Source: Armatimonadota bacterium (GTDB lineage: Bacteria; Armatimonadota; UBA5829; DTLH01). From it: a stretch of 64,000 nucleotides of DNA. The position numbers and the translations under genes are program-made. Of the stretch, positions 18,121 through 39,315 are shown piece after piece; position 1 is the first letter of the stretch, and the number at the start of each line of letters is the position of its first letter. Below the pieces are notes generated by a model. It made no database searches, was not told the DNA's origin, and saw nothing but the letters and a program-made list of their open reading frames with translations. Location of the stretch: contig JBDKSP010000011.1 of the NCBI GenBank assembly GCA_039680575.1, positions 7,861-71,860 on the forward strand. The letters run 5' to 3'.

Positions 18121-18123
18121 GCA

Positions 18124-18813: not shown

Positions 18814-18814
18814 A

Positions 18815-21364: not shown

Positions 21365-21368
21365 TATT

Positions 21369-22322: not shown

Positions 22323-22590
22323 GAGTGTTCCATCCGGATTGCGGGGTGAGATCAGCCGATGGTTGATCGAACCGAAGGCAGGTGTGTTTGTCGGGAAAGT
22401 ATCAGCCATGGTGCGCGATAAGCTGTGGCAGAAAGCCTGCGAGCATTCTAAAGGGGGTGGGGTAACTATGATATATAGCACAAATAATGAACAGGGATAT
22501 ACATTTAGGACGTTTGGTGAAACATCGCGTTCTATTGTTGACTGGGAAGGCTTGATGCTCGTGAGGATAGACAATAATTCGTCATCCTAG
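22303..22590 (+). CDS. cas2: Cas2e
   Basis: 95 aa, overlapping cas1 by 20 bp. The stop codon is 1 bp from the first CRISPR repeat. Confidence 0.9.
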   Translation: MMVLILESVPSGLRGEISRWLIEPKAGVFVGKVSAMVRDKLWQKACEHSKGGGVTMIYSTNNEQGYTFRTFGETSRSIVDWEGLMLVRIDNNSSS

Positions 22591-22591
22591 A

Positions 22592-24145
22592 GTATTCCCC
22601 ACACACGTGGGGGTGAACCGCGGAGTTGCAGCGGCAAATGGCACAGATACAGGTATTCCCCACACACGTGGGGGTGAACCGCATTGGAATCGCGCTGTGC
22701 GGCGGCCACAAAAGTATTCCCCACACACGTGGGGGTGAACCGAGCCTCCAGAACCCATCCCACAGCAGTTACGAGTATTCCCCACACACGTGGGGGTGAA
22801 CCGATGTTTTCATTTCCCCTGCTCCTCCTTCAGATGTATTCCCCACACACGTGGGGGTGAACCGTTTATGCAGGCTACGGCCGATCTTTCCGCTGGGTAT
22901 TCCCCACACACGTGGGGGTGAACCGGGTCAATTCCTCATTTTCACGCACTAGTGATTGTATTCCCCACACACGTGGGGGTGAACCGGCCTTGAGCACTGC
23001 TGTTTCGAGTTCTGCCCTGTATTCCCCACACACGTGGGGGTGAACCGTCCGGGGTGTTGTGGTTTGTATCAACTCAGGTGTATTCCCCACACACGTGGGG
23101 GTGAACCGCAGCTCGAGCTTGCGGAAAAGCAGCAGGAGTTGTATTCCCCACACACGTGGGGGTGAACCGTCATCCGCAAACCCGATAGCGACGGTGTCGC
23201 CGTATTCCCCACACACGTGGGGGTGAACCGCCGACTGTCCGGGTAGATATGCTCTGCTATAAGTATTCCCCACACACGTGGGGGTGAACCGTTAGGGTCA
23301 CTGTAGGCACAATTCTGGCCTTGGTATTCCCCACACACGTGGGGGTGAACCGATATATTGTCCGCTGAACCGTGGGACGACAGCGTATTCCCCACACACG
23401 TGGGGGTGAACCGAACATACTTGCCGTTGACCATCCCCCAGCCGTGTATTCCCCACACACGTGGGGGTGAACCGAACTGTGCAGGGTATTGGATCGCCGG
23501 CGTCACGTATTCCCCACACACGTGGGGGTGAACCGGGGAGACAGAATCATGAACGAGCAAATACACAGTATTCCCCACACACGTGGGGGTGAACCGGTTC
23601 GCAGGTGGTTTCACGCATAAACTCAACCGTATTCCCCACACACGTGGGGGTGAACCGGGTCGCCACTCTTTCTGGCATTCAGCCGGTCAGTATTCCCCAC
23701 ACACGTGGGGGTGAACCGCAGTGCTCCCTGAGTTCCAGCGAAGCACCGTCGTATTCCCCACACACGTGGGGGTGAACCGGGAGTGCGGTGAACCCGCTGC
23801 CCCTCCAGACTGTATTCCCCACACACGTGGGGGTGAACCGACTGCCGTGAGCACAGAGAACGCTAAAACCGCGTATTCCCCACACACGTGGGGGTGAACC
23901 GCGTGTCAGCATTCGTTCGCGCAGCAGTGCAGAGTATTCCCCACACACGTGGGGGTGAACCGATAGTACCGGCACTGAAATACCGGTGCTGAACGTATTC
24001 CCCACACACGTGGGGGTGAACCGGACAAGGACAAGTTCCACTGCTTGGACGCTCTGTATTCCCCACACACGTGGGGGTGAACCGATGTAAAGGCGCAAAA
24101 CAATCTACACGAACTAGTATTCCCCACACACGTGGGGGTGAACCG
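22592..24145 (+). CRISPR. Type I-E CRISPR array with 26 identical 29-bp repeats (GTATTCCCCACACACGTGGGGGTGAACCG) and 25 spacers of 32 bp
   Basis: Strict 61-bp periodicity was counted directly. The repeat shares the I-E consensus architecture (G.TTCCCC...GGGG.TAAACCG-like) with a CACGTG-containing hairpin core. It is on the same strand as the cas genes. The minus-strand ORFs in the ORF track with recurring HPHVCGEY peptides are artefacts of repeat translation. Confidence 0.97.
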
Positions 24146-24161
24146 GACGGCATTGGCTTTC

Positions 24162-26534
24162 CTAATCCCGTTGTTTTCTTCTCACTATCAGCATCCCGGC
24201 TATGAATGCGAGCGAGGAGAAATACAGGATCATTCCGGTCCGGTATGGTGTGTTCACGTACTCCATTCTTATATCATGTTTGCCTTTGGGGAGGTATACC
24301 GCCCGGAACAGGTAGTCTGCGCACAGGACTTTTACGGGTTTTCCGTCTACCCATGCCTGCCACCGTGGGTAATATACCTCACTGAAGAACAGGTAGCCGT
24401 TTGACGCCATATCAGCCTTAACATCGAGCCTGGTATCCGAGTAGGACGTAATTACTGCCCGGTCTTTTGCCGGATTGCCCGGAACCCGGCGAATTACGTT
24501 TCTGTTTTCGAGTATTATCGTCTTTTTTGGATCAAAGTCCGGCTCTTTTATCTCTTTAAGCGCTGCGTCGGGACTTTCCGCAAGTGTCGCGCTGTGAACG
24601 GTGAAAACTCTCGGAAGCCAGTTCCTGTTGTAGTAGACAAATGACTTTCCCGCGTGGATTTCCGCAAGATGGCTGCCTGTCAATCGCTTCGTGGATAGCA
24701 CATACTTTACGTTGAGCAGGCCGACCAAAGGGGAATCATGCCGGGTAATATCAGCGCTCACTCCGACATACGCAGGCGTGTTCTGGATAGCTCCTGCGTA
24801 GGCTGCGTAACGGCCTATTGAAGTGGGATAATAGCCGTTGACGCTCTCCAGCCCGTCAAAAACCCCCTGGGCGTATTGAAATGAGTCCGTGTCCATAGGA
24901 AGTATGCGGAAGCGGTCGCTGTCGGCTTTGATGATATTTATCGCCATTCTGTCCCCGGAAGTATAGAATTTCCGCGCGTTTGTGGTGAAAAGCAGCGGAT
25001 CGGCATAAAACCACAGGTCGATAAACGATAATGCGATGAGTGCGGTCGCGGCGGCATTAAGACTGATCCATTTTCGCGTAAGAGCAGTGACTGCTAGAGT
25101 CCCTAGCGCAATAAGCGCCGCAGTCCAGGCAAGTCCCGATAGCTGCATCGCATAAAGTCCTGCCAGTTTGCCCATAACGGCTTCGGGGTTGCTCCTGGTA
25201 GAGCCGATAATGCGTTCGGCGTGCGATAATATAATGCCTTTTGCCGCCCACCAGGCCACGAGGGAGATAATTACGGCGAGAAACGAGAAAGCCATGACCT
25301 TCCTGGCCAGCACAGCCTTGCCTTGTGCGTTTTGCGTCTCCGGTTCGATGGCAGCGAGTCGCGGAGACCTGAGCCTGACCGATGATGAGATCACTATATC
25401 AGTTCCGTAAGCCGCAAGCCCCGCCATTGCGAATGTATAGAGGTAAAGTATCTTGCTTGGAGCCCGGATCATACTGAAACCGGGGATTTTGTATATCAAT
25501 TTGAAGAACGGAGTATAATCACCGAGCGCGATCAGGATAGATAAAATGGCAAGCGCCTTGAAATATCCCGCGCGGGAGTCACGCATACCGAAAAATGCGA
25601 TGATAGCGAGAATGAACGGCAGAATGCCGATGAACATCGATCCGTCCCAGTAAAGCGCGCCGAAAGCGGAGTTTTCCTGCACCGGGCTGCCCCAGAACGA
25701 GGGCGCTATAGCAGTGACGAGCTGTGCAGGAGCGAGCGAAAACGAGGATGCGAAGCTGTAGTCCGTGCCGCCTCCACGGTTGGAAAGCGCTGTTGATTCT
25801 AAAAACTGCAGGATATATGGAGAGGATATAAAAAACGTGAAAAGAAAGGCTATTACAGCGAGACCAGCGTAAACCGGGACCAGGTTGAGCTTTCGTTCTT
25901 TGGCAACCATCGGCAAAACGCGCCAGATAAAGAAGATGGCCATAGCCAGCCCGGTGTAGTAGACATATTGTGGGTGCAGCCCAAGCAGTTGAAACCCCAG
26001 GACCACACCGGTCAGAGCAGCATACCGGAACTGCCTTGTCTCGACAGCTTTGTCAAGGAACAGAAACGTGAGTGGTATCCACACGCCCGACCAGATTGCG
26101 CCGCCATGACCCGCGTATATCTTCGAGATAAAGAACGCTGAGAACCCGAAGGCCATTCCTCCGATGATGGAGCCCGTATTGCTGCGTCCGAACCTTCGCA
26201 TGAGCATGTACATAAAGACCGCGGCTCCGAATATATGGATGATATACCGCCATGTCATCTCTCTTGGGAGCGGCATTGTCAGGCACAACCAGTCCAGAGG
26301 GTAAAGAGGTATAGCGGATGTGAGAGGAAAGCCGCTCATCATATAGGGGAACCAGTCAGGTCTCACTCCGCTTTGCACAGCATGGCTGAAATACCAACTG
26401 AACGGGTAACCCTGCGTAACGATATCCATTCCGAAAATAGTACCCGGTCTGAAAATGACATTGTGGAAGATCAGCAGAGTCGAAATGGCGAAAAGCACAG
26501 CTACGGATGGACCGAAAGCAGCCTGTTTTTTCAT
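24162..26534 (-). CDS. YfhO-family GT-C-like membrane glycosyltransferase
   Basis: 790 aa with more than 12 TM helices. The C-terminal soluble domain carries the YYPRWQAWVDGKPVKV...LPKGKHDIRMEY motif characteristic of the YfhO family. It lies in a glycan locus with a GtrB-like GT2. Confidence 0.65.
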   Translation of the reverse strand: MKKQAAFGPSVAVLFAISTLLIFHNVIFRPGTIFGMDIVTQGYPFSWYFSHAVQSGVRPDWFPYMMSGFPLTSAIPLYPLDWLCLTMPLPREMTWRYIIHIFGAAVFMYMLMRRFGRSNTGSIIGGMAFGFSAFFISKIYAGHGGAIWSGVWIPLTFLFLDKAVETRQFRYAALTGVVLGFQLLGLHPQYVYYTGLAMAIFFIWRVLPMVAKERKLNLVPVYAGLAVIAFLFTFFISSPYILQFLESTALSNRGGGTDYSFASSFSLAPAQLVTAIAPSFWGSPVQENSAFGALYWDGSMFIGILPFILAIIAFFGMRDSRAGYFKALAILSILIALGDYTPFFKLIYKIPGFSMIRAPSKILYLYTFAMAGLAAYGTDIVISSSVRLRSPRLAAIEPETQNAQGKAVLARKVMAFSFLAVIISLVAWWAAKGIILSHAERIIGSTRSNPEAVMGKLAGLYAMQLSGLAWTAALIALGTLAVTALTRKWISLNAAATALIALSFIDLWFYADPLLFTTNARKFYTSGDRMAINIIKADSDRFRILPMDTDSFQYAQGVFDGLESVNGYYPTSIGRYAAYAGAIQNTPAYVGVSADITRHDSPLVGLLNVKYVLSTKRLTGSHLAEIHAGKSFVYYNRNWLPRVFTVHSATLAESPDAALKEIKEPDFDPKKTIILENRNVIRRVPGNPAKDRAVITSYSDTRLDVKADMASNGYLFFSEVYYPRWQAWVDGKPVKVLCADYLFRAVYLPKGKHDIRMEYVNTPYRTGMILYFSSLAFIAGMLIVRRKQRD

Positions 26535-26566: not shown

Positions 26567-27727
26567 TTACTTATGTGCCGGCTTCAGCAGGCCGAGCATA
26601 GTTGCGCCGATTTTGGCGGCAGTCGCGGTATTGAGCAGCATATTGGAGTAGGCCTGGTTGGCGAGAGGACACCAGCAATTGCCTTTCTTTATGTATTGCC
26701 GGATTTCATCCGCGCGCGGCGAGCGCCAGATCCTCCAGAAGTCGTAATCATAATCCGAGAGTCGTCCCATCGACTTGTCATACCCCAGTACGCAGCACGG
26801 CCATACGTCTCCATAGGGGCTGATGTGAACATTCGATATTCCTCCGTAGCAGGGCAGCACCTGTTTTCTCTCGTGCAGAATACGTACGACGAGATTGTAA
26901 TAAACGAGTCTCGATGCGCTTATCTGCTTTCCGAGCTTTCCGGCTTCTCTCAAGTGCCTGCGGCTTTCATCGGAGAAAGCCCGAATTGCCTGTTCGTAGT
27001 CATCCGCGGTCGGGGTGATCGAGTCTTCCTCGTTGAACATCTCGCTTCTCTGCTCGGCAATCTCGCTTATGTAGCTGTCCAACCCCAGAAGGTGAACGAA
27101 ACGGGCGACTTCTCTGATATTATGCACGTTATAGCTGGATATGACCGTTCCAGCGCCGACCTCCAGGTTCGAATAGCGCTCTTTCAGCTTTTTCAGCCGG
27201 TTTATGGTCTCCAGCAGCTTATCGAAGTTACCGGGGACACCTCGGATCTCGTCATGTGAGTCTCCCACGCCATCGAATGAAGGCTTGACGGTAAACATGA
27301 CCTGTCTTTTGCTTGCTTTAAGCCGTTTCAGGATATCTTCCGTCATTGCGACTATCCGGTCGGTCAGGATGGCGTTCGTCGGAGTATGGATAACCCCAGG
27401 CGTGAGCAGTTCATTAGCGAGTTCCACTATCTGAGGGAAATCTTTTCTGAGGAATGGTTCGCCGCCGCTCATATTGACAAAATAGACGTGTCCCAGGCTC
27501 TTGAAAAGCCTCTCGAAGTCTCCGAGCGTCATTTCGTCTTTCAGGTTTGTGCCGCACTCGCCGCGATACATATCCCATATATTACAGGTCTTGCATCTGG
27601 ACTGGCACATGTTGGTGACGGAAAGGGTGATGTTTATGGGACGGCCCGGAGACACCATACCCAATCGGGCCAGTTTATAGTTCATCGTCCTGGGAAGTAT
27701 GTCAGTTATCAGCGCTTTAGGGGTCAT
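26567..27727 (-). CDS. Radical SAM enzyme with a C-terminal SPASM/twitch-like Cys cluster
   Basis: CQSRCKTC is a CX3CX2C motif located about 40 aa from the chosen start. The C-terminus has PCCV and CWCP cysteines. The start was trimmed to ATG 27727, 22 bp after the upstream flippase stop; the six-frame ORF extends further to 28000. Confidence 0.7.
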   Translation of the reverse strand: MTPKALITDILPRTMNYKLARLGMVSPGRPINITLSVTNMCQSRCKTCNIWDMYRGECGTNLKDEMTLGDFERLFKSLGHVYFVNMSGGEPFLRKDFPQIVELANELLTPGVIHTPTNAILTDRIVAMTEDILKRLKASKRQVMFTVKPSFDGVGDSHDEIRGVPGNFDKLLETINRLKKLKERYSNLEVGAGTVISSYNVHNIREVARFVHLLGLDSYISEIAEQRSEMFNEEDSITPTADDYEQAIRAFSDESRRHLREAGKLGKQISASRLVYYNLVVRILHERKQVLPCYGGISNVHISPYGDVWPCCVLGYDKSMGRLSDYDYDFWRIWRSPRADEIRQYIKKGNCWCPLANQAYSNMLLNTATAAKIGATMLGLLKPAHK

Positions 27728-27749: not shown

Positions 27750-29396
27750 TTATTCTTCAGCACCTTTACCCGGAACTGCTGAGGCGTAAACATGCCCGGC
27801 AGAAGGATTAAGCATCGATTTTGCTGAACGGTACGATTCTCTATCGAGAGAAACAGCGATGAGCGGATACGCGATAAGCGTGAGTATAGCCGATCCGAGC
27901 GCTGTAGCAAGCCCGCTCGGAAGTATGAGTGCTGCAATGGCAAACGAGGCGCCGACAGCGCATAATGAGCTGAAAAGCGGGTGTTTGAACATCTCCGCAT
28001 ATCCGCCCACAGTCATATCCAGCATCTTGACGACCTTCCAAAGCGCCATGCTTGTGCCGATAATGTAGGCACAGGTGAAAAGGACCGCAACACCAGCCGC
28101 ACCGAACTTTATCGCAACCGGATAGACAAGCGGCGCCGCGATGCCGAGCTGCAGGAAGTTAAGCCGGTACACCCACTTGGGCTCACCCATGGCCATAAAA
28201 ACGATCCCTGCTGTCGCGCCGATAGACCGGAACATCCCGTAAAACGCAAGTATTCTGAAAAGCGGTATAGCAGGAGCCCATTTTCTTCCGAAAAACCCCA
28301 GCACGAAGTCGCTTGCCGCAAGCGCCAGCCATATCGCTGCCGGGAAAGAGAGCATCGAAATGCTCTTCACGGTCCGAGTGTATGCTCGTCTCAAGGCCGG
28401 TATATCATTGTTCAGTTTCGAGTAAGTAGGAAACATCACTTTGTTGACGATGTGAGTGATATTCGTCGCGGGCAGGTTGCAGATGGTATAGGCAAGGCTG
28501 TAGTAGCCGAGGATAGTCACGCCCAGCCATCTCCCGATAGCCGCGTTGTCGATATAGAAAAAGGCAAGGAACAGGAATGTGGCTGCCATCAGCGGTTTTC
28601 CGAAACTGAGTGTGCGTTTGGCGCTTTCTTTATGAAAAGATGCAACCGGCTTCCAACCCGCGACTGTCCAGGTGACAATGGCGGATATTGTAACGCTTGC
28701 CAGATGTCCGATTACGAGGCTCCATACTCCGAGCCCTTTGTAAGCGAGCGTGATCGAAACGGCTGCATAGGAAAGACCCATCGCAAGCTCCGGCAGCGCC
28801 CGCCTTTTGAACTCAAGGTCTTTTTCCAGAAGAGTCGAAGGGACTGTCGCAAGTGAAGATAAAACGACTGAAAAGCTCATTATCCTGAGCGGCCAGATGA
28901 ACGCCGGTCCGCCGAACACCATTGAGATAAGCGGGCTCGCTGCATAGATCACAGCCCATGCGCTGAAGCCGAATATTGCGCTCATCAGAAATGTCGTTTC
29001 GGCGTTTTTCTGCACATCGGTCTTATGGTAGATAAGCGCCTGGCCGAATCCAAGGTCGCGGAAGAGTGTCAGCGCGGTTACGATCATTGTCCCAAGTGCG
29101 AACAGCCCGAATACGGATGGAGCCAGCAGCCGTGCAAGCACGATTGTCACCAGAAACTGCATTATCCTGACGGTAATCGCGCCTGTAAACGTCCAGCCGA
29201 CTCCGGTAATTACGTTTCTGCCAATAGTTTTTTTCATATAGTCCGCCTGATAGTCAGTGTCGTTGTGTTTTGGAATCTGTTCGATCTTGAGCCGGTCGGC
29301 TAACGTCGCCATGAGATGCCGCTCAATGAATCCTGCAGCGCCTGTTACGAGCGTTTTTATTTTCCGAAAGCAGTTACCGCCAGACTCCTGCGGCAA
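27750..29396 (-). CDS. MOP-superfamily polysaccharide flippase (Wzx-like)
   Basis: 548 aa with about 12-14 TM helices and the usual Wzx layout. Confidence 0.7.
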   Translation of the reverse strand: MPQESGGNCFRKIKTLVTGAAGFIERHLMATLADRLKIEQIPKHNDTDYQADYMKKTIGRNVITGVGWTFTGAITVRIMQFLVTIVLARLLAPSVFGLFALGTMIVTALTLFRDLGFGQALIYHKTDVQKNAETTFLMSAIFGFSAWAVIYAASPLISMVFGGPAFIWPLRIMSFSVVLSSLATVPSTLLEKDLEFKRRALPELAMGLSYAAVSITLAYKGLGVWSLVIGHLASVTISAIVTWTVAGWKPVASFHKESAKRTLSFGKPLMAATFLFLAFFYIDNAAIGRWLGVTILGYYSLAYTICNLPATNITHIVNKVMFPTYSKLNNDIPALRRAYTRTVKSISMLSFPAAIWLALAASDFVLGFFGRKWAPAIPLFRILAFYGMFRSIGATAGIVFMAMGEPKWVYRLNFLQLGIAAPLVYPVAIKFGAAGVAVLFTCAYIIGTSMALWKVVKMLDMTVGGYAEMFKHPLFSSLCAVGASFAIAALILPSGLATALGSAILTLIAYPLIAVSLDRESYRSAKSMLNPSAGHVYASAVPGKGAEE

Positions 29397-30531
29397 CTGC
29401 CGACGGCTTGTAGTCCTGCTGTCCCAGGTATACCTTTTCTACCTGCTCTATCATCCTGTCCAGGCCGAAGAGCGCAGTAACACGTTCCTTGCCTGCTCTG
29501 CCCATCGCTTCAACGCGTTCCTCTTTGAAGATGCTGTAGATCGACGATGCGATAGCGGCAGGATCATGGACAGGAACGATACAGCCGGTGAAACCATCAA
29601 TTATCGTTTCGCTGATTCCAGATACATCGGGAGCGACGACCGGCAGCCCTGCGGCCATTGCTTCAAGCGCTGCAAGAGGGTGTCCTTCCCAGAGTGATGA
29701 CATTGCGAATACATCGAACGCCGGGAGGATTTCGGGTATATCGCTTCTGAACCCTGTAAAGATAACCTTGTGAGCTATCCCCAGATCCTGCGCTAGACGT
29801 TTTACCTCAGGCAGTTCTTCTCCATCCCCAATAAGCACGAAAACTACGTCATCGAGCTGTTTATGCAGGATTGTTGCTGCCCTGACCAGATCACCCAGGT
29901 TTTTCTGCTTCGTGAACCGCGCCGCTGTCCCTACAACGCGGCAGCCGGTCGGGATCATAAGTTTATTTCTGGCGTGGCATTTACTGACGGGTTTTTCGTA
30001 TTTGGTAAGATCTACCCCGCTGTGTATGGTAGTTACGCGATAATCGGGGACTCCTTCGTCTATGGTCATCCTCCTGAGATCGCTTGACACCGTGATAATC
30101 GTGTCCGTCCAATTAGCAAGCTGCTTGTCTGACCATTTATATACATACTCAACGGGTTTTCGGACTGCGCTATATCCGTGGATGAGGTCGGTGGACATAG
30201 AGTGGACAGTATGGACGATCTTCCTGCACCCGGCAAGCCTCGCTGCGATCCGCCCGGTAACACCGGCGCGTACTCCGTTGGTATGCACCACATCGAACCC
30301 ATTTTGTTTTATGGCTTTTGCAAGGTTGATGATTGTCGGTATGTCCGGGTAGCGATGGTACTCTGCGTGTATGATGGGTATTTCTGCCGCCATGAGGTTC
30401 TTATAGAGCTTCTCATGATTGCAGGATACGGCAACCTCATGTCCTTTTTCCCTCATGCCGACCGCCAGATCGTATACATACCTCGCCTGGCCTCCGAAAG
30501 CCGGCGCGCCATCTATCTGAAGAATTTTCAT
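29374..30531 (-). CDS. Glycosyltransferase family 4
   Basis: The GT-B fold motif EGHPLAALEAMAAGLPVVA (the EX7E region) is present. Length 385 aa. Confidence 0.85.
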   Translation of the reverse strand: MKILQIDGAPAFGGQARYVYDLAVGMREKGHEVAVSCNHEKLYKNLMAAEIPIIHAEYHRYPDIPTIINLAKAIKQNGFDVVHTNGVRAGVTGRIAARLAGCRKIVHTVHSMSTDLIHGYSAVRKPVEYVYKWSDKQLANWTDTIITVSSDLRRMTIDEGVPDYRVTTIHSGVDLTKYEKPVSKCHARNKLMIPTGCRVVGTAARFTKQKNLGDLVRAATILHKQLDDVVFVLIGDGEELPEVKRLAQDLGIAHKVIFTGFRSDIPEILPAFDVFAMSSLWEGHPLAALEAMAAGLPVVAPDVSGISETIIDGFTGCIVPVHDPAAIASSIYSIFKEERVEAMGRAGKERVTALFGLDRMIEQVEKVYLGQQDYKPSAVAAGVWR

Positions 30532-30548: not shown

Positions 30549-32042
30549 TCAGTGCCTGTTTTTGATACCGGGAGCCATGACTGCCGCGATTTTGGATATA
30601 TCCTCTTTCGTTATTTCACGCATCGCAGCAAGCGCAAACGCGTAGACCGTAAAAAGGATGACGTAAGTCCCTACCAATTGAAATCCTCGTGCAGGCAGTA
30701 CTCCCGCGGCGAAATAGACCATCATCCCTGATATAATTATTCTGAAAGCGGAGACAGGCGCAATGAGTCCGCCCAGTCTTCCCGCGCAAATCGCGGCGGA
30801 TGTCAAAAGGCCGACGCCCGCCGTTGATACCGATGCGATAGCCGCTCCCGTTATCCCAAACTTGGGGATAAATACCATATTGAGCGCAAATGCTATTGCA
30901 ATCAGGATAGTAGTACCCAAAAGCGGCGTTCGTATATCGCCAATTGCCACCGATATGTTATAAAGCGCGTGAAGAAACCCGAAAAGCATCAAGCCGGCTG
31001 CAAGTATTGCAAGCGCGGGAGCCGCGGCCATGTATTTATCAGTGTAAAGCATCTCGACTGTACCTGCCGATGTGCCGGACAAGACGGCTGTGACCGGTAC
31101 CAGCAGCAGCATATGGAGCCTGAGTGCCTGGCGGACATACTGGTGTATCATTTCGTAATTATTTCTGCTTGCTGCATGTGAGATCGCGGGCAGAGTAGCC
31201 GTAGCGATTCCGATCAGTACATAAAACGGCGCTCGTGCGAGGGTATTGGCGGCTGTGTAGAAGCCGGTGCTTTCCGGCGTTTGCATAAGCGCCTTTACAG
31301 CAAACATATCTATGTTGATCAGGAGTGTAAATCCGATGGAAAGCGCCGCGGTACCGCCTGCGTAACGGATCAGCTTTTTTATAGGATATAGATCGACTTT
31401 AGGCAGTGTTCCGGCAAGTATTACGGCTACCGCAAGCCCCCCGACGGATGCGAGTATATTTCCGATGATTGCGCCTCGTAATCCGAAACCGAGCATCACC
31501 AGAAGAAGTACCGTCCCAACCTTTGAAATGGCATATGTAAGCATAGCGGCAGATTGCTTCGCATAGTTTCGCTTGCCATTCAATATAGCCGTGTAGCAAA
31601 AATAGAACGCATAGACAGGTATATCGAGAGATGCGAGCCGGACAAGCCTGGTGAGGTTCGGGTCATGAAGCAGACTTGCGATCCAGGGAGCCGCGATCAT
31701 TGCAATAACGAATAACAGCGCGCTGAAAATGAGCTGTCCACGCATCGCGGACCGGGCAATCGAAGTCATCAGGTCTTCCCGCTCTGAGCCGAATTTCCTG
31801 ATTGCATACGGGAAGCCGCCGGTCAGAGAGACTTCCATCCATATAAGAAACGCCATGACTATCCCGAACAGACCGTAATCCGCCGGTCCGAGCTTACGCC
31901 CGAGGTAAAAATGGACGACATATCCACCGATCAGGAATGCTGACTGCACTCCGACAAGTGAGATCGTTCCACGGGCAAGACTGTCTTTGCGGCTGGCAGT
32001 TATATCAGATGCTTCGACGGCCATCTGCTCCTCACATCGCAA
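30549..32042 (-). CDS. MOP-superfamily polysaccharide flippase (second copy)
   Basis: 497 aa and polytopic. It is a paralogous class to 27750-29396. Confidence 0.7.
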   Translation of the reverse strand: MRCEEQMAVEASDITASRKDSLARGTISLVGVQSAFLIGGYVVHFYLGRKLGPADYGLFGIVMAFLIWMEVSLTGGFPYAIRKFGSEREDLMTSIARSAMRGQLIFSALLFVIAMIAAPWIASLLHDPNLTRLVRLASLDIPVYAFYFCYTAILNGKRNYAKQSAAMLTYAISKVGTVLLLVMLGFGLRGAIIGNILASVGGLAVAVILAGTLPKVDLYPIKKLIRYAGGTAALSIGFTLLINIDMFAVKALMQTPESTGFYTAANTLARAPFYVLIGIATATLPAISHAASRNNYEMIHQYVRQALRLHMLLLVPVTAVLSGTSAGTVEMLYTDKYMAAAPALAILAAGLMLFGFLHALYNISVAIGDIRTPLLGTTILIAIAFALNMVFIPKFGITGAAIASVSTAGVGLLTSAAICAGRLGGLIAPVSAFRIIISGMMVYFAAGVLPARGFQLVGTYVILFTVYAFALAAMREITKEDISKIAAVMAPGIKNRH

Positions 32043-33252
32043 GGATTGCTTTTATTATTTCTTCAGGGTCCGGCGGACATCCGGGTATGTGAATGATGTT
32101 TTTCGGTATCTCCTCGTAATTTTCCAGCAGGTCGCGGGCGCAGTCGCCGCTTATCAGGATCTTCTGGTTTTTCCTGAACTCCGGCATGCGGTTTCCCCGT
32201 CCGCGTACGACATCGATCCGTTTGAAAAACATGTAGTACGCCAGTTTCGGGATGAACATCCAGTATTTCGGGGTCCTTCTGGCAAGCCTGAACGCCTTAT
32301 GGAACGCCTCATCATCCAGATGGCACGCGCGATGGTTTCTCCATACGTATAAGTTGTGGTTTTTCTTCACGTCCTGCGGCGCGGGATCGAATACGGCTGC
32401 GAGTGACTCGATGCTCATTCCCCGTACATCTGTTTCCCATCTTCCAAGTCCCAGACTGATGGCGCGTTTGATGTGCAGGACTTCTTCGGGGTCCGCTCCC
32501 ATCAGCTTTGCTCCGACGATGTCTGTTTCTACCATATTTTTACCGACCAGGAGCACCCCCATCGGTTTTGGGTGCCCCAGTATCGGTCCGTTTCCTTCCA
32601 TCGCCAGTATTCCGTCTACTACGGTCATATGCGGTCGAACTGCTCTTGCGAGCTGTGCAATCGGCTCATGCAGACCGAGCCGGTGGTACATCTGCCTGTC
32701 TTTGAACGAAAGCAGCCCCCACTGGTTCTTCATAGTGAGCGAAACGGTGGTCCGGTTGTGTGTTTTCAGCTTCGCTACATTGATGTATATGTCAGATTCC
32801 AGCATGGGAGTAGGAACGGACATATAGCCACAGTAGTAGTTTTGGAGTTCATCATCTTCATAATAATTAGGCAGGTTCCTATAGCCATAGCCGATACTGA
32901 CATTAGTTCTGAGCGCGTCGAACAGGTTCAGGAGTCGGGCGTTCTTGCGCTTGGCAAGGTCCGCGTAACCAGTGACTTGAAAAGTCTTTTGGGGGTCGAC
33001 CCCGAGCGCCGGAGCCTCCGCAATCGTGACATCCCGCACTCCCGAATCGTGCAGAAGGTCGATTATGCTTTCCACAACAACGGGATGAACGACAACACCC
33101 GTTTCCGGCGCAAAGGCCTGAACGAGGTTTACTTTGAGGACAGCCTTTCGAGCTCCATCGAAGCTGACCCCGGCTTCCTTCATCCCTTTTGCTATCTCGG
33201 ATTTGATGGCATCCAGATTGTAATGCGATACTGCGCTTAGATATACCGACAT
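32032..33252 (-). CDS. DUF362-domain protein
   Basis: The start is trimmed to MSVYLSAV so that it abuts the upstream gene's stop at 33276. The LKVNLV motif is comparable to the KPNL signature of DUF362. There is no ferredoxin-like tail in this copy. Confidence 0.55.
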   Translation of the reverse strand: MSVYLSAVSHYNLDAIKSEIAKGMKEAGVSFDGARKAVLKVNLVQAFAPETGVVVHPVVVESIIDLLHDSGVRDVTIAEAPALGVDPQKTFQVTGYADLAKRKNARLLNLFDALRTNVSIGYGYRNLPNYYEDDELQNYYCGYMSVPTPMLESDIYINVAKLKTHNRTTVSLTMKNQWGLLSFKDRQMYHRLGLHEPIAQLARAVRPHMTVVDGILAMEGNGPILGHPKPMGVLLVGKNMVETDIVGAKLMGADPEEVLHIKRAISLGLGRWETDVRGMSIESLAAVFDPAPQDVKKNHNLYVWRNHRACHLDDEAFHKAFRLARRTPKYWMFIPKLAYYMFFKRIDVVRGRGNRMPEFRKNQKILISGDCARDLLENYEEIPKNIIHIPGCPPDPEEIIKAILAM

Positions 33253-33275
33253 CTCACCCTCCAGAAAATCAGCGC

Positions 33276-34391
33276 TTATGACTTGAATGATTGCTTTATC
33301 GTTACTGCTCCATTCGGGCACATGTTTACACACATAAGGCAGCGGGCTTTGCTGCACTGTCCATAGTCCAGTTTTTCAGACTCGATGTCTATGGCATTCA
33401 CCGGACACGCGGCTGCGCAGGCATCGCAATAACTGCACCTTTTCCAGTCGATGACAGGGTGAATACCGAACCTGGAATGAAACCAGGGTATAAGGCTCTT
33501 CACTCCGAAATTTGATAAGTAATGGTCGCTCGCATAGACCGTTGCGTATAAATGCCGGTACAGGTTTTTGCGGAGTTTGCTGCTTCCGGCTGCTATATCT
33601 ACCGGCTCGACCTCATCGCCGGCTATATCGATCAGCGGGGAGCGCCCACGGGCTGCGAGCTTTAGGTGCTTTACATCCGATCTTTCAAACCCCAATAACT
33701 TCGAGGCGAACAGGTCCAGAGCGAGCATATCTGTCGATGCGGCAATTACACCCATGCTCATATATTCTCCATAGACCGCACCCGAGACCGGAATGACCAG
33801 CCCTTCCATTACCGACATTACCGGGCGAAACAGCTTGTAGAGCGCTGCGATTCCGGCATCCAGCCCCTTGGCGTGTACCTCCCGCCTGCTGCTCTTATGA
33901 AGCATACCGAAACAGTTCTTGATTGCCAGGCTCACATCGGTCAGCTTGTGACATTTCATCTTTGGGACGTTTACGATAGCTTCTGACTCTACTGCGGTCG
34001 CGGCTATCTTCACTCGCCTGATCCTTGGGTGGTCGAATGGGACTTCTATATATCTATCCTCTTCGAAGTTTACGACCTCGACCCCAAGCTGTTGGGCGAG
34101 GTCTCTTATTCCCAGGATGTCAAATGTAGTATAAGAATCATATTCAAAACCTGAACAATCGCCTATTACAGGAGTAGCGCCGGCATCTATGATTTCCTGC
34201 ACCACTGCAGCCAGAACATCGAAGTTGGTTACAGCGGCAGGTACCGGCGCGACCAGATTCGGCTTGACCAACACAGTCCAGCCGGGACGGATATTCTCCT
34301 TCAGGCCGCCCGATATCGAGATCGCTTGCCTGCAGGCTGCGACAATATTCTCCGTGCCTTCCCCGACCTTTACAACAGCTACCGTTGCCAT
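33276..34391 (-). CDS. DUF362-domain protein with a C-terminal 2x[4Fe-4S] ferredoxin domain
   Basis: TVLVKPNLV motif in the N-terminal region. The C-terminus has CSYCDACAAACP and CLMCVNMCP, which are two CX2CX2CX3CP clusters. Confidence 0.65.
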   Translation of the reverse strand: MATVAVVKVGEGTENIVAACRQAISISGGLKENIRPGWTVLVKPNLVAPVPAAVTNFDVLAAVVQEIIDAGATPVIGDCSGFEYDSYTTFDILGIRDLAQQLGVEVVNFEEDRYIEVPFDHPRIRRVKIAATAVESEAIVNVPKMKCHKLTDVSLAIKNCFGMLHKSSRREVHAKGLDAGIAALYKLFRPVMSVMEGLVIPVSGAVYGEYMSMGVIAASTDMLALDLFASKLLGFERSDVKHLKLAARGRSPLIDIAGDEVEPVDIAAGSSKLRKNLYRHLYATVYASDHYLSNFGVKSLIPWFHSRFGIHPVIDWKRCSYCDACAAACPVNAIDIESEKLDYGQCSKARCLMCVNMCPNGAVTIKQSFKS

Positions 34392-35366
34392 CTATAGGTA
34401 CCCCTGATCTATGTACCATTCGACTGTTTGCTGTATTCCGTCCGAAAGGCTGACCTGTGGTTCAAAACCTAGTGTCTGCTCTGCTTTGGATGTGTCGGAT
34501 GCATGATCACGGGTGAAAAAGTTTACCTGGTATCTGGTCAGAGGCGGCTCATGGTTGAGAATTCCCGCCGCGGCTTCAGCACCGTAAGCTGCAAGTTTCG
34601 CAAGGATAACCGGCACATTTTTGCGTGTAGACCTCAATCCAAGCGTATTGGAGATGACCTTGGCGAGTTCGAAAACCGTAACAGGCCTGGGACCTGCTAT
34701 GTTGAATATTTCACCGAATGCGGCAGGGTTCTCCATCGTGATAAGGCATCCACTGACAACATCGTCCACATAGGTAGGGTGAAGCAGGCTTCTTCCGCTG
34801 CCGATAAGCGGGAAACGGTCTTCCTTTATGGCTTTGAACAGCTTGAGCTTGTGCAGATCTCCCGGACCGTAAACGAAGTCCGGCCTTATTACAGTCACGG
34901 CAACATGATTATTCTTGTGATAGGCAAGCGCTGTCTTCTCTCCATCGCATTTGGTGCGCTCGTATAGCGCCGACGGTCTGTAAGGCAGGCATTCCGGCGC
35001 AACCCCGGACATACCGACCACACCGGGGGTGCTGCAGTGTATGACTTGCCGGACGTTATTCCGTTGACAGGCTTCCAGAAGGACTCTAACGGCCTGAACA
35101 TTGACTTGCCGCATCTCATCGACCTTTACCGCCTGTCCCCCGAGTTTCGCTGCCAGATTGAAAACCACATCGACATTCCGGCAGGCTGCAGAGACTGATT
35201 CAGGATCGACCAGAGAGCCTTTTTTTATCTCGACACCGTTAGAACTAAGCCTCTCATAGTTGCTGCTCTCACGCACGATAGCACGCACCTCATGTCCCGA
35301 TCTGAGGAGTGCCTGCACCAGATGTCCTCCGATAAACCCTGTAGCGCCCGTTACCAGGATCAGCAT
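34392..35366 (-). CDS. NAD-dependent sugar epimerase/dehydratase (SDR family)
   Basis: Rossmann motif LVTGATGFIGGHL and a catalytic YxxxK motif. The length of 324 aa is typical of UDP-hexose 4-epimerases. Confidence 0.85.
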   Translation of the reverse strand: MLILVTGATGFIGGHLVQALLRSGHEVRAIVRESSNYERLSSNGVEIKKGSLVDPESVSAACRNVDVVFNLAAKLGGQAVKVDEMRQVNVQAVRVLLEACQRNNVRQVIHCSTPGVVGMSGVAPECLPYRPSALYERTKCDGEKTALAYHKNNHVAVTVIRPDFVYGPGDLHKLKLFKAIKEDRFPLIGSGRSLLHPTYVDDVVSGCLITMENPAAFGEIFNIAGPRPVTVFELAKVISNTLGLRSTRKNVPVILAKLAAYGAEAAAGILNHEPPLTRYQVNFFTRDHASDTSKAEQTLGFEPQVSLSDGIQQTVEWYIDQGYL

Positions 35367-36502
35367 CCGGTACCTCCTGCTTCGCTCACAAGGCTCTCTA
35401 TAGCCTCGACAAGCCTGCTCCAGGAGAACTCTTCTCTAAAAGCTGATATATTGTCGATGAACTCCCCGGCTTTATCCTCTTCAAAGAACCTGACCACTGC
35501 GCGCGCAAGCGCGTATGAGTCCTCAGGGGACACTACGTACCCTGTTTTTCCATCAATGACGGTCTCGGGCAGCCCTCCGACGTTCGTGGTGACGACAGGC
35601 CTGTCGAACCCGTATGCGATCTGCGCGATTCCGCTCTGTGTGGCGGTGACATAAGGCAGGACAACCAGGTCTGCAGCAGAGAAATACATCCCGACGGCCT
35701 CGTTAGGGATATATTCATCCGTAATCTTGACGCAGTGATCTATCCCAAGGTCTTTTATCAGCCGAACATACTTCTCTTTACCGTCGTAGAACTCTCCTGC
35801 TATGACAAGTACGGCATTTACCGATGAAAGGATGGCTGGCATTGCCTCTATCAGATATTTCAACCCCTTATACTCCCGTACGAGGCCGAAGAAGAGTATT
35901 ACGTTCTGATTTTGGCTCAGTCCCAGTTCGCGCCGGGCAGTATCCTTCGATATCGGCTGCTTCCTAAACACCTCGTAGGTTGGGTGGCGGGCTTTCCGCA
36001 CCTGCGCATTTGGCAGAATATCCTTCAGGTTTATGGTGTCTTCTTCCGAATGAGTAATGAACATGTTTCCCTTGCCCAGGGCATATTTCGTGAAAAGTCT
36101 GACCGGTCCGCTCTTTTCGTGCGGCAGCACATTGTGGCACAGGAACATTACCTTGGTGAATTTGCGGCATAGCGCTGCTAACGACCCGAAAGCCGGTGCA
36201 AAAAACGGATGCCACCACTGTATGATGACCAATTCGGGTGAATATTCCCGTATTCTTTTCGCCGCGTGTGACCATGACAGAGGGTTCATTGAATCGACGA
36301 GCGGTTCGGCTCCTTCAACCACCAATTTTACTGCGCTTTCATCCCTTTGGGTCTTGCCGGGAAAAAGCAGCCGGGGATACTGGCGTGACATCGACACAAG
36401 CTGCACTTCATGTGACTCCGCAAGACTTTTGCAGAGTAATGCAGTGTAGTGTGCGATTCCTCCCCTGAAAGGAAATGAAGGCCCGACAACAATGATACGC
36501 AA
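35360..36502 (-). CDS. Glycosyltransferase family 4
   Basis: GT-B C-terminal domain with GGLPETVIDGKTGYVV. Confidence 0.85.
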   Translation of the reverse strand: MRIIVVGPSFPFRGGIAHYTALLCKSLAESHEVQLVSMSRQYPRLLFPGKTQRDESAVKLVVEGAEPLVDSMNPLSWSHAAKRIREYSPELVIIQWWHPFFAPAFGSLAALCRKFTKVMFLCHNVLPHEKSGPVRLFTKYALGKGNMFITHSEEDTINLKDILPNAQVRKARHPTYEVFRKQPISKDTARRELGLSQNQNVILFFGLVREYKGLKYLIEAMPAILSSVNAVLVIAGEFYDGKEKYVRLIKDLGIDHCVKITDEYIPNEAVGMYFSAADLVVLPYVTATQSGIAQIAYGFDRPVVTTNVGGLPETVIDGKTGYVVSPEDSYALARAVVRFFEEDKAGEFIDNISAFREEFSWSRLVEAIESLVSEAGGTGC

Positions 36503-36559: not shown

Positions 36560-37627
36560 CTATATCCACGGTCTGGCAGCTTCAGATTCCGGATTTTTCT
36601 TGCAGATTGCCTGTGCCGATTTGCCCGTTATCCTGCACACCTGAGATTTCTCGTCCTTGTTCTGGCGCGCGATCATCTCAGCCAGCAACCCATGGGAAAC
36701 GAACTGTACACCGAGGATCATCAAAAGGACGCCCAGCATAAGGAGCGGCCTGCGTCCTATCGCCGCGCCTCCGATCCAGATTGCGGCGAGGTATATGTTG
36801 ACTACAGTCCCGGCGAATAGAAGCATCAGGCCTAGAGAGCCGAACAGGTGAAGAGGTTTTGTGGTGTACCGGGTAATGAAGAGTACGGTCAGCAGGTCCA
36901 GCAGCCCGCGTGTGAACCTGGCTATGCCGTATTTCGACTTCCCGAACTTTCTGCTCCTGTGGTTCACTTTGATCTCAGCCACGCTGAACCCGCTTCCGAA
37001 CGCCAGCGCCGGGATATAGCGGTGAAGCTCGCCATAAATTTTGACATTCTCGATGACCTCACGCTTATATGCCTTGAAACCGCAGTTGAAGTCGTGCAGC
37101 TTCAATCCGGTGGTCATCGATGCTACTTTGTTGAAGAGCTTGGATGGAAGTGTTTTTGAAATAGGGTCCAGCCGCCTGAACTTCCACCCGGAGACCATGT
37201 CGAAACCTTCCGAAAGTTTCGAAAGGAAGTTTGGTATCTCCTTGGGGTCGTCCTGAAGGTCCGCGTCGAGGGTAAAGACAATATCACCGCTCGCTGCCTT
37301 AAACCCTTCTGTGAGAGCTGCGGCTTTACCGAAATTACGGCGCATGTATATGGCTGTGACCCGTGGATCAGTTTCACACAAGCGCGTGAGGATGTCGGCT
37401 GATCCGTCTGTGCTTCCATCGTTGACAAATATGATCTCATACCTGCAGCCAATGTTGTCCAGCGTGCTCGTTAACTCTTCATAAAGAGTTCCAAGACTCT
37501 CTTTTTCGTTGTAGAGTGGGATTACTACGGATATTGCCTTTTCCACTGCAGTTTTGTTGGACTCATCAGCGACGTATCCGGCCTGTCTCTCCACTGCTGT
37601 TGCCTCCTTGACATAAAAGAACCCCAC
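36560..37627 (-). CDS. GT2 polyprenyl-phosphate glycosyltransferase (GtrB/ArnC/CsbB-like)
   Basis: N-terminal GT-A domain (VVIPLYNE..FVNDGSTDGS..DAD) followed by two C-terminal TM helices. This is the architecture of UndP-sugar synthases. Confidence 0.8.
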   Translation of the reverse strand: MGFFYVKEATAVERQAGYVADESNKTAVEKAISVVIPLYNEKESLGTLYEELTSTLDNIGCRYEIIFVNDGSTDGSADILTRLCETDPRVTAIYMRRNFGKAAALTEGFKAASGDIVFTLDADLQDDPKEIPNFLSKLSEGFDMVSGWKFRRLDPISKTLPSKLFNKVASMTTGLKLHDFNCGFKAYKREVIENVKIYGELHRYIPALAFGSGFSVAEIKVNHRSRKFGKSKYGIARFTRGLLDLLTVLFITRYTTKPLHLFGSLGLMLLFAGTVVNIYLAAIWIGGAAIGRRPLLMLGVLLMILGVQFVSHGLLAEMIARQNKDEKSQVCRITGKSAQAICKKNPESEAARPWI

Positions 37628-37899: not shown

Positions 37900-39315
37900 G
37901 TGGCCGGATTAGGCAGTATGAGTAGTATGAGCAGCGATTCGTCCGTAGAATCAGATAAGCTCCGAAACTTTCCACAAGGAGCAGGCTTAACCATCAAGCT
38001 CGGCTTCTGGGGAGCATTTTTGATTGCAACACTGGCGGTATCGGTCGTCGCCAAGCTGCCGTTTACTGCTCCGAGCGCTCAGGCATATATCACGATATGC
38101 GCGATGACTTCTGCTGTCTACCTGGCTGTTTTTACTCATTGCCTGATGCGTCTTGCATACTGCCGATGCCCCAGTTGGTTACTCTACACATCCAGTTTTG
38201 CGGCCTTATCGATATCCGGGTTGATTGGCGTAGTTCTCAATTTGGGGTTGATAGAAAGTGATATCACGTGGAGGCGGTTGTATCTGCTTAGGTCGGCGTT
38301 ATTGCCGACAGCTACAACACTCCTTGTTTTTGCGTCACATGCGCTCAAGGCCAGCACCAGGGGATACCGGTTGAGAACATGGAAAATCAGTGTTTGTGCT
38401 GTTTTGGTCGTAGGTTTTCTGGTGGTAATGTGGCGTACCGGCGTATGGTATTTTACATGCAGCATGATCCGAAGTTCAAATATGGACCCACTCCTGGCGA
38501 TATACACGGCCTCCGCTGCTACATCGATAGTCCTGCTGTATAATGTCAACAAGCTGGCGGGCTCCAGTCCGAATGAAATATTCGTTCCGGTATGCTATTG
38601 GAGTGTTGCCATGGTTATCGAATCAGTGCTGACGCTTATATCCTGGACCTTTTTGGACACTCTACGGTTCAAGATGATGGGAATCGAACTCGCGGGTGTT
38701 ATGGCAATGCTGATAGGCCTAAGTATGGAAAATGAGCGGGCGCATAGAGGCGCAGCCCAGCAAATGTCGGATTTGGAAGCGATGCAAAAGGTTTCCTGGT
38801 CACTTGTAGGCGCAGGTGATCTGATGGAGCTAATGTCTACTTTTGTTAAAGCTATTTCAGAAGGATTTCAGGATGCGCCGGTCGTGGCGTATCTGGATAA
38901 AGAGGATGTTGGAGAGTCACTTACCATCGCCGCTGTGACAGGCATCGATGATCCGGCCATATACTTTGGAAAGGTATGCTCTCTCAGACCGGAAAGAAGG
39001 CCGGGGTTCCACAATGGTCATACGGCACGTGCATTTGCGAGTTCCGAGGTCCAGACTGCAAAAGCGGTGTTCTCGGATGTAGAGTTTATGCCCTGGAGAA
39101 TGGTCGCGCATGAGGACGGAATGGTAGTGTCGGTACCTCTCCCGTATCAAAACAGGGTGATAGGGGTAGTGAACCTGTTCTTAGCCGGAGCGCGGGATGT
39201 TTCAGATGACCGTATAAGACAGTTGGAAGCTATCGCGGCAGCAGTATCACCAGCCATAGAGAACGCGCGGCTCAGAGTCAGAATAGCTGATGTCAGCCTG
39301 GAGCAGGCCGCATAA
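37900..39315 (+). CDS. Polytopic membrane protein with a C-terminal cytoplasmic GAF-like domain
   Basis: About 8 TM helices, followed by a roughly 170-aa soluble domain with GAF-like secondary-structure periodicity. No kinase, GGDEF or HD-GYP output domain follows. Confidence 0.5.
   Translation: MAGLGSMSSMSSDSSVESDKLRNFPQGAGLTIKLGFWGAFLIATLAVSVVAKLPFTAPSAQAYITICAMTSAVYLAVFTHCLMRLAYCRCPSWLLYTSSFAALSISGLIGVVLNLGLIESDITWRRLYLLRSALLPTATTLLVFASHALKASTRGYRLRTWKISVCAVLVVGFLVVMWRTGVWYFTCSMIRSSNMDPLLAIYTASAATSIVLLYNVNKLAGSSPNEIFVPVCYWSVAMVIESVLTLISWTFLDTLRFKMMGIELAGVMAMLIGLSMENERAHRGAAQQMSDLEAMQKVSWSLVGAGDLMELMSTFVKAISEGFQDAPVVAYLDKEDVGESLTIAAVTGIDDPAIYFGKVCSLRPERRPGFHNGHTARAFASSEVQTAKAVFSDVEFMPWRMVAHEDGMVVSVPLPYQNRVIGVVNLFLAGARDVSDDRIRQLEAIAAAVSPAIENARLRVRIADVSLEQAA

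Follow-up and report, generated by a model that had tools for sequence, protein, structure and literature searches.

The nickel enzyme lactate racemase (LarA) takes a hydride from a C-H group next to a hydroxyl, holds the keto intermediate, and returns the hydride. Its N-terminal domain binds the cofactor and its C-terminal domain binds the substrate (PMC12611868). The DUF362 family belongs, together with DUF2088/LarA_N, to one Pfam clan, CL0471, and has hence served as the outgroup in a LarA phylogeny (PMC11770544). The present analysis concerns two adjacent DUF362 genes, designated A and B, in a 64,000-nucleotide stretch of DNA (the window) from an Armatimonadota bacterium (NCBI GenBank assembly GCA_039680575.1, contig JBDKSP010000011.1, positions 7,861 to 71,860 of the forward strand), where they lie inside a glycan locus. 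Judged from predicted structures, DUF362 corresponds to the cofactor-binding N-domain fold of LarA, and A and B are members of the LarA superfamily, each with a fused iron-sulfur (Fe-S) module; they may act as a pair in a redox step of sugar modification. A and B resemble LarA (PF09861 + PF21113; PDB 5huq, 2yjg, 6d6z, 9eia, and 9q3j) in the fold of the N-domain, in clan membership, and, by weak profile alignments, in the register of a Lys and two His residues, but they lack equivalents of LarA His108, Arg75, Tyr294, Gln295, and Lys298, have neither a Lar_N match nor LarA_C, carry the fused Fe-S domains, and have no lar maturation genes nearby.

Three other systems bear on the comparison. In decaprenylphosphoryl-ribose 2'-epimerase (DprE1/DprE2), an oxidase, the FAD enzyme DprE1, makes a keto group on a lipid-linked sugar; reduction by a short-chain dehydrogenase/reductase (SDR) then gives the epimer, which serves as a substrate for GT-C glycosyltransferases. 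The logic proposed below for A and B would be analogous to this, but there is no relationship in sequence or fold, and the candidate oxidase here is a LarA-fold Fe-S protein. The second system is the family of NuoB/PSST/MbhJ/HycG and the small subunits of [NiFe]-hydrogenases (PF01058), with which B shares CxxC, GxC, and GCPP positions in register; the domain in B differs in being fused to DUF362 instead of being paired with NuoD or a large subunit, and its second Cys is replaced by Asp in the clade to which B belongs. The third is NphT, a nickel-pincer-dependent homolog of the aldo-keto reductases that has a TIM barrel and is encoded beside larBCE (PMC13524815). NphT offers a parallel as a hydride-transferring, sugar-active enzyme other than LarA that was nominated by its conserved Lys and His, but DUF362 has the LarA fold and is not found beside larE in 174 loci.

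The DUF362 cores and their relationship to LarA

Gene A (33276..34391, minus strand) encodes a protein of 371 residues with a DUF362 domain and a C-terminal 2x[4Fe-4S] ferredoxin domain, and gene B (32032..33252, minus strand) encodes 406 residues comprising DUF362 and a NuoB-like [4Fe-4S] domain. Both proteins match PF04015 (DUF362) far above the Pfam gathering cut-off of 24 bits (E 2.8e-42, 145.5 bits, residues 40-229 for A; E 9.1e-43, 147.1 bits for B), and they are paralogs, being 28% identical over 285 residues (E 3e-22), with the motif VKPNLV in A and LKVNLV in B. A first-pass annotation, made by a model from the sequence, had proposed a tandem of DUF362 paralogs with such NLV motifs and had named a Pfam scan as the means of checking it; this proposal is upheld, as are the outer limits given for the pair (32032-34391), and the start of B needed correction. 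The longest open reading frame for B has 441 codons, beginning at a GTG at 33357, and overlaps A; because all B orthologs have 406 residues and a GGAGG Shine-Dalgarno sequence precedes the ATG at 33252, B was assigned to 32032..33252, which leaves 23 nucleotides between the stop codon of A and the start of B. Each protein is 100% identical to an NCBI entry named "DUF362 domain-containing protein" from an Armatimonadota metagenome-assembled genome. The nearest NCBIfam model, Npun_F2552, scored well below its cut-off, and a literature search on Npun_F2552 returned nothing.

The core of A comprises residues 40-229 (33705..34274, minus strand) and includes invariant Lys43, Asn45, Thr55, Lys146, His148, Lys158, Asn159, His173, and Asp226; that of B comprises residues 38-248 (32509..33141, minus strand), with invariant Lys40, Asn42, Lys163, His165, Lys175, His190, Asp213, and Asp244 and a canonical EGNGP motif. 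AlphaFold (AF2) models built on family alignments had a predicted local distance difference test (pLDDT) of 92.5 and a predicted template modeling score (pTM) of 0.92 for A, and of 93.2 and 0.89, respectively, for B. When these models were compared with the PDB by Foldseek, every match with an E value up to 1e-3 was a chain of a LarA-family nickel-pincer racemase; A had 18 such matches and B had 15, the lowest E value being 3e-7 and the probabilities 0.99-1.0; structure prediction and structural searching, likewise named beforehand as checks, therefore lead to LarA-family proteins only. When the two sequences were used as queries against the PDB, A matched ferredoxin domains and the DUF362 part of neither protein had a match; because nothing except the ferredoxin part of A is matched, there is no solved structure of DUF362. 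The first-pass statement that DUF362 has no assigned function stands in this respect, and also in that the searched literature contains no characterized member, but it needs to be qualified by the clan assignment and by the modeled similarity to the LarA N-domain. A profile search with the B family did not recover LarA.

True LarA homologs carry both Lar_N and LarA_C. Neither PF09861 (Lar_N) nor PF21113 (LarA_C) matched A or B at E values up to 0.01 in Pfam, and the position of LarA_C is taken by other modules, the ferredoxin domain in A and the NuoB-like domain in B. For profile-profile comparison with hhalign, the LarA sequence was checked against 5huq and small LarA alignments were built, a search of protein databases with LarA having given only homologs of at least about 70% identity and thus no added diversity. 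Three independent runs, in which the DUF362 profile came from the relatives of A, from those of B, or from a set of 135 sequences, gave weak E values (0.004-0.23) and the same register, in which the H-x9-K-x14-H of DUF362 falls on His174, Lys184, and His200 of LarA. In this register the catalytic base of LarA, His174, aligns with His148 of A and His165 of B and is kept in 132 of the 135 homologs; Lys184, the thioamide tether of the nickel-pincer cofactor, aligns with Lys158 and Lys175, and the nickel ligand His200 with His173 and His190, both being kept in 135/135 (roles in LarA from PMC12611868).

The usual EGxGP motif of DUF362 is missing from A, and the possibility that A is a degenerate, noncatalytic copy was considered on this ground; it was rejected, since all of the invariant polar residues are present. 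Both proteins keep the full invariant DUF362 set (K-x-N, K-x-H, K-N, H, and D), and from their sequences neither looks like a dead copy. The first-pass division of labor between a catalytic copy and an electron-transfer copy is not supported by the same evidence, as both proteins keep this set and both carry a Fe-S module.

Two further segments are restricted in their distribution. B proteins of the Armatimonadota clade contain an inserted stretch of about 20 residues, many of them Tyr, Asn, or Asp (GYGYRNLPNYYEDDELQNYY; B residues 123-142, window approximately 32827-32886), which is absent from distant B-type homologs in a 29-sequence alignment. The insertion roughly coincides with the lineage that has an A partner and may form an A-B interface. 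In A, residues 268-311 (window 33458-33590) are a conserved helical linker between DUF362 and the ferredoxin domain, with the consensus YR..F...Y..D...S..G....IPWFH; it is common to A and its orthologs, including one from Acidobacteriota (L030), and is lacking in distant ferredoxin-type (Fer4-type) DUF362 proteins.

Iron-sulfur modules

The dicluster ferredoxin domain of A (PF00037/PF12838; 33297..33458, minus strand; residues 312-365) has Cys319, Cys322, Cys325, and Cys329 for the first cluster and Cys346, Cys351, Cys354, and Cys358 for the second. PF00037 (Fer4) matches residues 312-335 with 37.1 bits (cut-off 21.1), dicluster models extend over residues 312-365, and the eight Cys are invariant in 19 homologs. 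The first-pass annotation had described two CX2CX2CX3CP clusters, found in the upstream copy only. The first motif does have this form and the second is CX4CX2CX3CP; the restriction to the upstream copy holds for motifs of the ferredoxin type but not overall, because B has a cluster motif of the NuoB type.

The C-terminal extension of B contains a NuoB/PSST/[NiFe]-hydrogenase small-subunit-like cluster domain (32038..32337, minus strand; residues 306-405), in which the ligand positions are Cys310, Asp313, Cys371, and Cys392, the last within GCPP; the three Cys are invariant. In an hhalign comparison of B residues 285-406 with an alignment of NuoB, MbhJ, HycG, and NdhK, the probability was 94.8% with an E value of 5.5e-8 over 95 columns, and a B-family profile compared with the hydrogenase subunit MbhJ by HMMER put all four ligand positions in register. 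The direct match of B to PF01058 (Oxidored_q6) covers only the last 22 residues, with 19.1 bits and an E value of 1.1e-3, below the cut-off of 27 bits. By these sequence criteria B carries a [4Fe-4S] domain of the NuoB/[NiFe]-hydrogenase small-subunit type that is not annotated by Pfam, and its predicted cluster ligands are likely to be three Cys and one Asp. The residue at the fourth ligand position, which is the second in order along the motif (residue 313, window 32314-32316), was read by hand from the alignment. Every Armatimonadota ortholog has Asp there, as does P0053; most distant homologs have Cys, and P0057 has Ala, so that residues 310-313 read C-H-L-D in the Armatimonadota clade and CxxC in distant homologs. 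This variability hints at a cluster that is site-differentiated or has a labile ligand.

Among 144 DUF362 homologs, 48 are of the Fer4 type, 75 of the NuoB type, and none of both. A Fe-S module is thus present in 123/144, and the 21 homologs without one either are truncated or have different fusions.

Conserved partners, a proposed redox step, and alternatives

A scan that used one genome per species (GTDB species representatives) found 369 B-type loci, in Armatimonadota, Patescibacteria, Acidobacteriota, Eisenbacteria, Chloroflexota, Omnitrophota, Planctomycetota, Methanomassiliicoccales, Alkanophaga, Bathyarchaeia, Helarchaeota, and Promethearchaeum MK-D1. Complete genomes with B-type DUF362 include those of Promethearchaeum syntrophicum MK-D1 (NZ_CP042905.2) and of a member of Methanomassiliicoccales (chromosome CP070739.1). 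Neighbors within 10 kb were counted in 80 of the 369 loci by tblastn with the proteins of the window operon, and the 80 were split into loci in which B scored at least 190 bits (related, n = 45) and more distant loci (n = 35). An ortholog of the radical S-adenosylmethionine (SAM)/SPASM enzyme of the operon occurs in 36/45 related loci as opposed to 4/35 distant ones (35-44% identity, 240-296 bits), the ArnC-like GT2 in 25/45 and 0/35 (53-58% identity), the GT4 orthologous to the product of 35360..36502 in 26/45 and 1/35 (43-49% identity), and an SDR scoring at least 70 bits in 34/45 and 1/35. Fisher's test on the radical SAM counts gives p = 9e-10 for loci that are not phylogenetically independent. 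As a control, 80 metagenomic Fer4-type DUF362 loci were taken from more than 552 Fer4-type metagenome stretches found with a Fer4-type alignment; the radical SAM ortholog was present in 0/80 at a cut-off of 150 bits, the one also applied to the related and distant loci, with one weak match of 51 bits, and the GT2, GT4, and SDR neighbors were almost entirely absent. The co-occurrence with glycosyltransferases that the first-pass annotation had named as a check is found for the related B-type loci and hardly at all for the distant loci or the controls.

B-type DUF362 is therefore part of a cross-phylum cassette with radical SAM/SPASM, ArnC-like GT2, GT4, and SDR genes, and the radical SAM/SPASM gene is its most conserved genomic partner in bacterial and archaeal phyla. 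This gene lies 14-120 bp from B in most loci outside Armatimonadota and 4 kb downstream of B in the window. Three contigs annotated with Pfam (one from Patescibacteria, an archaeal one with UbiA and PMT, and a third with GtrA) all contain radical SAM/SPASM, and SDR, GT2, and GT-C are each present in two of the three. The Eisenbacteria-type locus has the order Metallophos, GT2, radical SAM/SPASM, DUF362, unknown, LPG_synthase_TM, SDR, GT2, GT4, GT2, Phosphodiest. An A-type partner beside B was seen in Armatimonadota and in one Acidobacteriota and one archaeal locus, and A is a lineage-restricted addition to the B cassette. The archaeal locus L070 (9045-13220) combines a tandem pair of B-like DUF362 genes with a Fer4-type DUF362 gene that is read in the other direction, and it also includes radical SAM and GT4 orthologs; multicopy DUF362 sets therefore recur outside Armatimonadota. 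DUF362 is also found fused to GFO_IDH_MocA sugar/inositol dehydrogenase domains in fusions of 637 residues (among P0119, P0122 (Jordarchaeales), and P0116), and fusions with CBM9/dockerin have been described (PMC5742341). The dehydrogenase and CBM9/dockerin fusions support carbohydrate substrates. One protein among the same three combines DUF362 with a squalene-hopene-cyclase C-terminal-type domain and has 600 residues.

The explanation that is tentatively preferred, although it falls somewhat short of being probable, is that A and B are a Fe-S-wired enzyme pair of the LarA superfamily that performs a redox step in the synthesis of a modified sugar. The DUF362 site would hold a cofactor or metal that accepts a hydride or electrons and would oxidize or reduce a secondary alcohol or ketone on a sugar linked to a nucleotide or to polyprenyl phosphate. 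Unlike in LarA, the hydride would not be returned; the two electrons would instead pass into or out of the enzyme pair by way of as many as three [4Fe-4S] clusters, the cluster of B followed by the two of A. The keto-sugar that A and B make or consume could then be reduced from its other face by the SDR to give an epimer, and a further change could be introduced by the radical SAM enzyme. The resulting epimerized or otherwise modified sugar would be loaded on a lipid carrier by the ArnC-like GT2 and flipped, after which YfhO would join it to a polymer of the envelope. With a single catalytic His and without the substrate domain of LarA, DUF362 proteins, of which 123/144 homologs carry a Fe-S module, appear better suited to a net two-electron reaction between alcohol and ketone. 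The sugar oxidoreduction step suggested in the first-pass annotation may in this sense be retained, since both the fold and the gene neighborhood are compatible with redox chemistry on a carbohydrate.

A more specific and speculative version, which is itself improbable, is that DUF362 is a large unrecognized branch of nickel-pincer (or related pyridinium-metal) enzymes, in which the LarA hydride shuttle has been opened to net two-electron redox chemistry because the cofactor has a [4Fe-4S] cluster like the proximal one of hydrogenases (in B) or a ferredoxin (in A) beside it; in this cassette it would be the oxidase half of an anaerobic epimerase like DprE1/DprE2 whose sugar substrate is linked to a lipid or a nucleotide. 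The range of enzymes other than LarA that depend on the nickel-pincer cofactor is under active investigation, and those described in recent work beyond the LarA racemases and epimerases are an aldo-keto reductase homolog (2026) and an ornithine cyclodeaminase only (PMC13524815). If a pincer-type cofactor were bound, DUF362 would be the first enzyme family to couple that cofactor to one-electron carriers; if not, it would be a case of the LarA fold being reused for a different metallochemistry. Either way, the alignment provides concrete residues to mutate, and a large DUF that is very widespread, as the 369 B-type loci and the more than 552 Fer4-type stretches indicate, becomes a testable candidate. 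The clan membership of DUF362 is already known, but the conservation of the cofactor ligands, the NuoB-like domain of B, and the cross-phylum radical SAM/SPASM cassette are absent from the searched literature. It is probable that numerous uncultured bacteria and archaea, Asgard archaea among them, use the cassette of radical SAM/SPASM, DUF362, SDR, ArnC-like GT2, GT4, and GT-C to make an unknown envelope sugar.

Several observations weigh against the preferred reading. The searched literature contains no biochemically characterized DUF362 protein, and the substrate and the direction of electron flow proposed above are pure inference. The alignment with LarA is statistically weak by itself and its register comes from sequence profiles; in addition, LarA His108 has no counterpart in the hhalign alignments, where A has Glu83 at this position and B has approximately Gly84. 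The co-occurrence counts lack phylogenetic independence, many of the loci being Eisenbacteria-like, and the Armatimonadota locus L016 has no radical SAM gene within 10 kb. Finally, tblastn found neither LarE nor LarA within 10 kb of 93 B/A-type loci or in the window and no LarE in 80 further Fer4-type loci, so that over the local neighborhoods searched, 2.46 Mb around 174 DUF362 loci, there were 0 LarE genes. In the absence of LarE near these loci, a nickel-pincer cofactor is without genomic support here, and the conserved Lys/His pair is the one feature that suggests its presence in A and B. In the metagenomic locus L133 (1936-7211), 2.6 kb separate a Fer4-type DUF362 gene from a gene for a 489-residue Lar_N protein (a LarA homolog), in a cluster that also includes ROK, URO-D-like, PGI, and TIM genes; this is the only instance of DUF362-LarA proximity among the 174 loci.

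The close spacing of B-type DUF362 and the radical SAM ortholog in most loci outside Armatimonadota, together with the prevalence of Fe-S modules in the homologs, would also be expected if A and B had no substrate of their own and were dedicated electron-transfer partners of the radical SAM/SPASM enzyme, reducing its [4Fe-4S] cluster or taking an electron from a dehydrogenase-type reaction. However, a plain ferredoxin would suffice for this purpose, the DUF362 domain of about 250 residues keeps about ten invariant polar residues in a register like that of the LarA active site, and Fer4-type DUF362 occurs without a radical SAM neighbor in the control loci; a role solely in electron transfer is accordingly considered unlikely.

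It is also conceivable, although distinctly unlikely, that the DUF362 pocket is a mononuclear or binuclear metal site, with His165, His190, Asp213, Asp244, and possibly a carboxylated Lys as ligands, instead of a site for a pyridinium cofactor, and that, with assistance from Fe-S, it dehydrates, dehydroxylates, or reduces a sugar by chemistry like that of the deoxysugar enzymes E1/E3. The invariant His/His/Asp/Asp/Lys set would provide such ligands, the Lys is conserved more strictly than a tether alone would need, LarE is not linked to any of the 174 loci, and variation of the fourth cluster-ligand position of B among Cys, Asp, and Ala is as in site-differentiated catalytic clusters. This proposal, however, has no structural or sequence precedent in the LarA fold and does not account for the exact coincidence of the Lys and His with the cofactor ligands of LarA.

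More doubtful still is the suggestion that A and B are ordinary LarA-like nickel-pincer epimerases that invert one stereocenter of a sugar or hydroxy acid by a hidden hydride shuttle, their Fe-S domains being structural or regulatory. The LarA fold and the conserved Lys/His would be expected of such enzymes, and LarA homologs do include sugar-acid epimerases and single-His variants tied to carbohydrate metabolism (PMC11770544, PMC12611868), but A and B lack the LarA_C substrate domain and a second catalytic His, Lar_N is not matched by Pfam, no lar genes are nearby, and the frequency of Fe-S modules in the homologs argues for net electron transfer. That A and B are unrelated to the glycan pathway and stand in its operon by chance or co-regulation only is scarcely credible, since the gene order is kept in Armatimonadota loci whose A orthologs are only 49-58% identical, similar cassettes are present in other phyla, and coding regions overlap or abut, even though distant DUF362 subfamilies do occur in nonglycan contexts (L011, L012, and the Fer4-type loci).

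The operon and flanking features

A and B are co-transcribed with glycan genes and lie between an SDR gene and a gene for a Wzx flippase, which agrees with the placement inside a glycan locus, beside an SDR, given in the first-pass annotation; the packing with the SDR is translational. All ten genes of the operon are on the minus strand. The first (36560..37627) encodes a GT2, an ArnC/GtrB-like polyprenyl-phosphate glycosyltransferase with a C-terminal membrane part (ArnC model, E 7e-63), and the second (35360..36502) a MshA/BshA-like GT4. They are followed by the gene for an extended SDR of 324 residues (34392..35366), whose stop codon abuts the ATG of A; among proteins of solved structure, the SDR is closest to nucleotide-sugar epimerases and 4,6-dehydratases (E down to 1.6e-29). 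After A and B, the fourth and fifth genes, come a MOP/Wzx-type (Wzx/MurJ-type) flippase (30549..32042), which overlaps the end of B by 11 nucleotides, a GT4 glycosyltransferase (29374..30531), and a second MOP/Wzx flippase (27750..29396). The ninth gene (26567..27727) encodes the radical SAM/SPASM enzyme, of 386 residues from Met92 of its open reading frame and with CX3CX2C at residue 132 of that frame; the closest named models are the generic SPASM maturases ScmE, AhbD, and NirJ, all far below their cut-offs. The last (24162..26534) encodes a YfhO-type GT-C membrane glycosyltransferase that is conserved in Armatimonadota loci. The operon is a gene set for building a sugar on a lipid carrier, flipping it, and attaching it outside the membrane. 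The same gene order is present in four further Armatimonadota contigs, which encode the A orthologs of 49-58% identity. Promoter and terminator scans over 23.5-38.5 kb gave results at chance level only.

A divergent gene for a GAF-domain protein (37900-39315, plus strand) lies directly upstream of the first gene of the operon and is also present in two related Armatimonadota contigs (L003, 3206-4585; L004, 3147-4526); its product is a candidate regulator of the glycan locus. On the other side, the window contains a complete type I-E CRISPR-Cas system (13934-24147) with Cas3 (HD and helicase), Cse1, Cse2, Cas7 (CT1975), Cas5, Cas6e, and Cas1. Its CRISPR array (22592-24147) has about 26 repeats of 29 nucleotides (GTATTCCCCACACACGTGGGGGTGAACCG) with a period of 61 nucleotides and ends 15 nucleotides from the YfhO gene.

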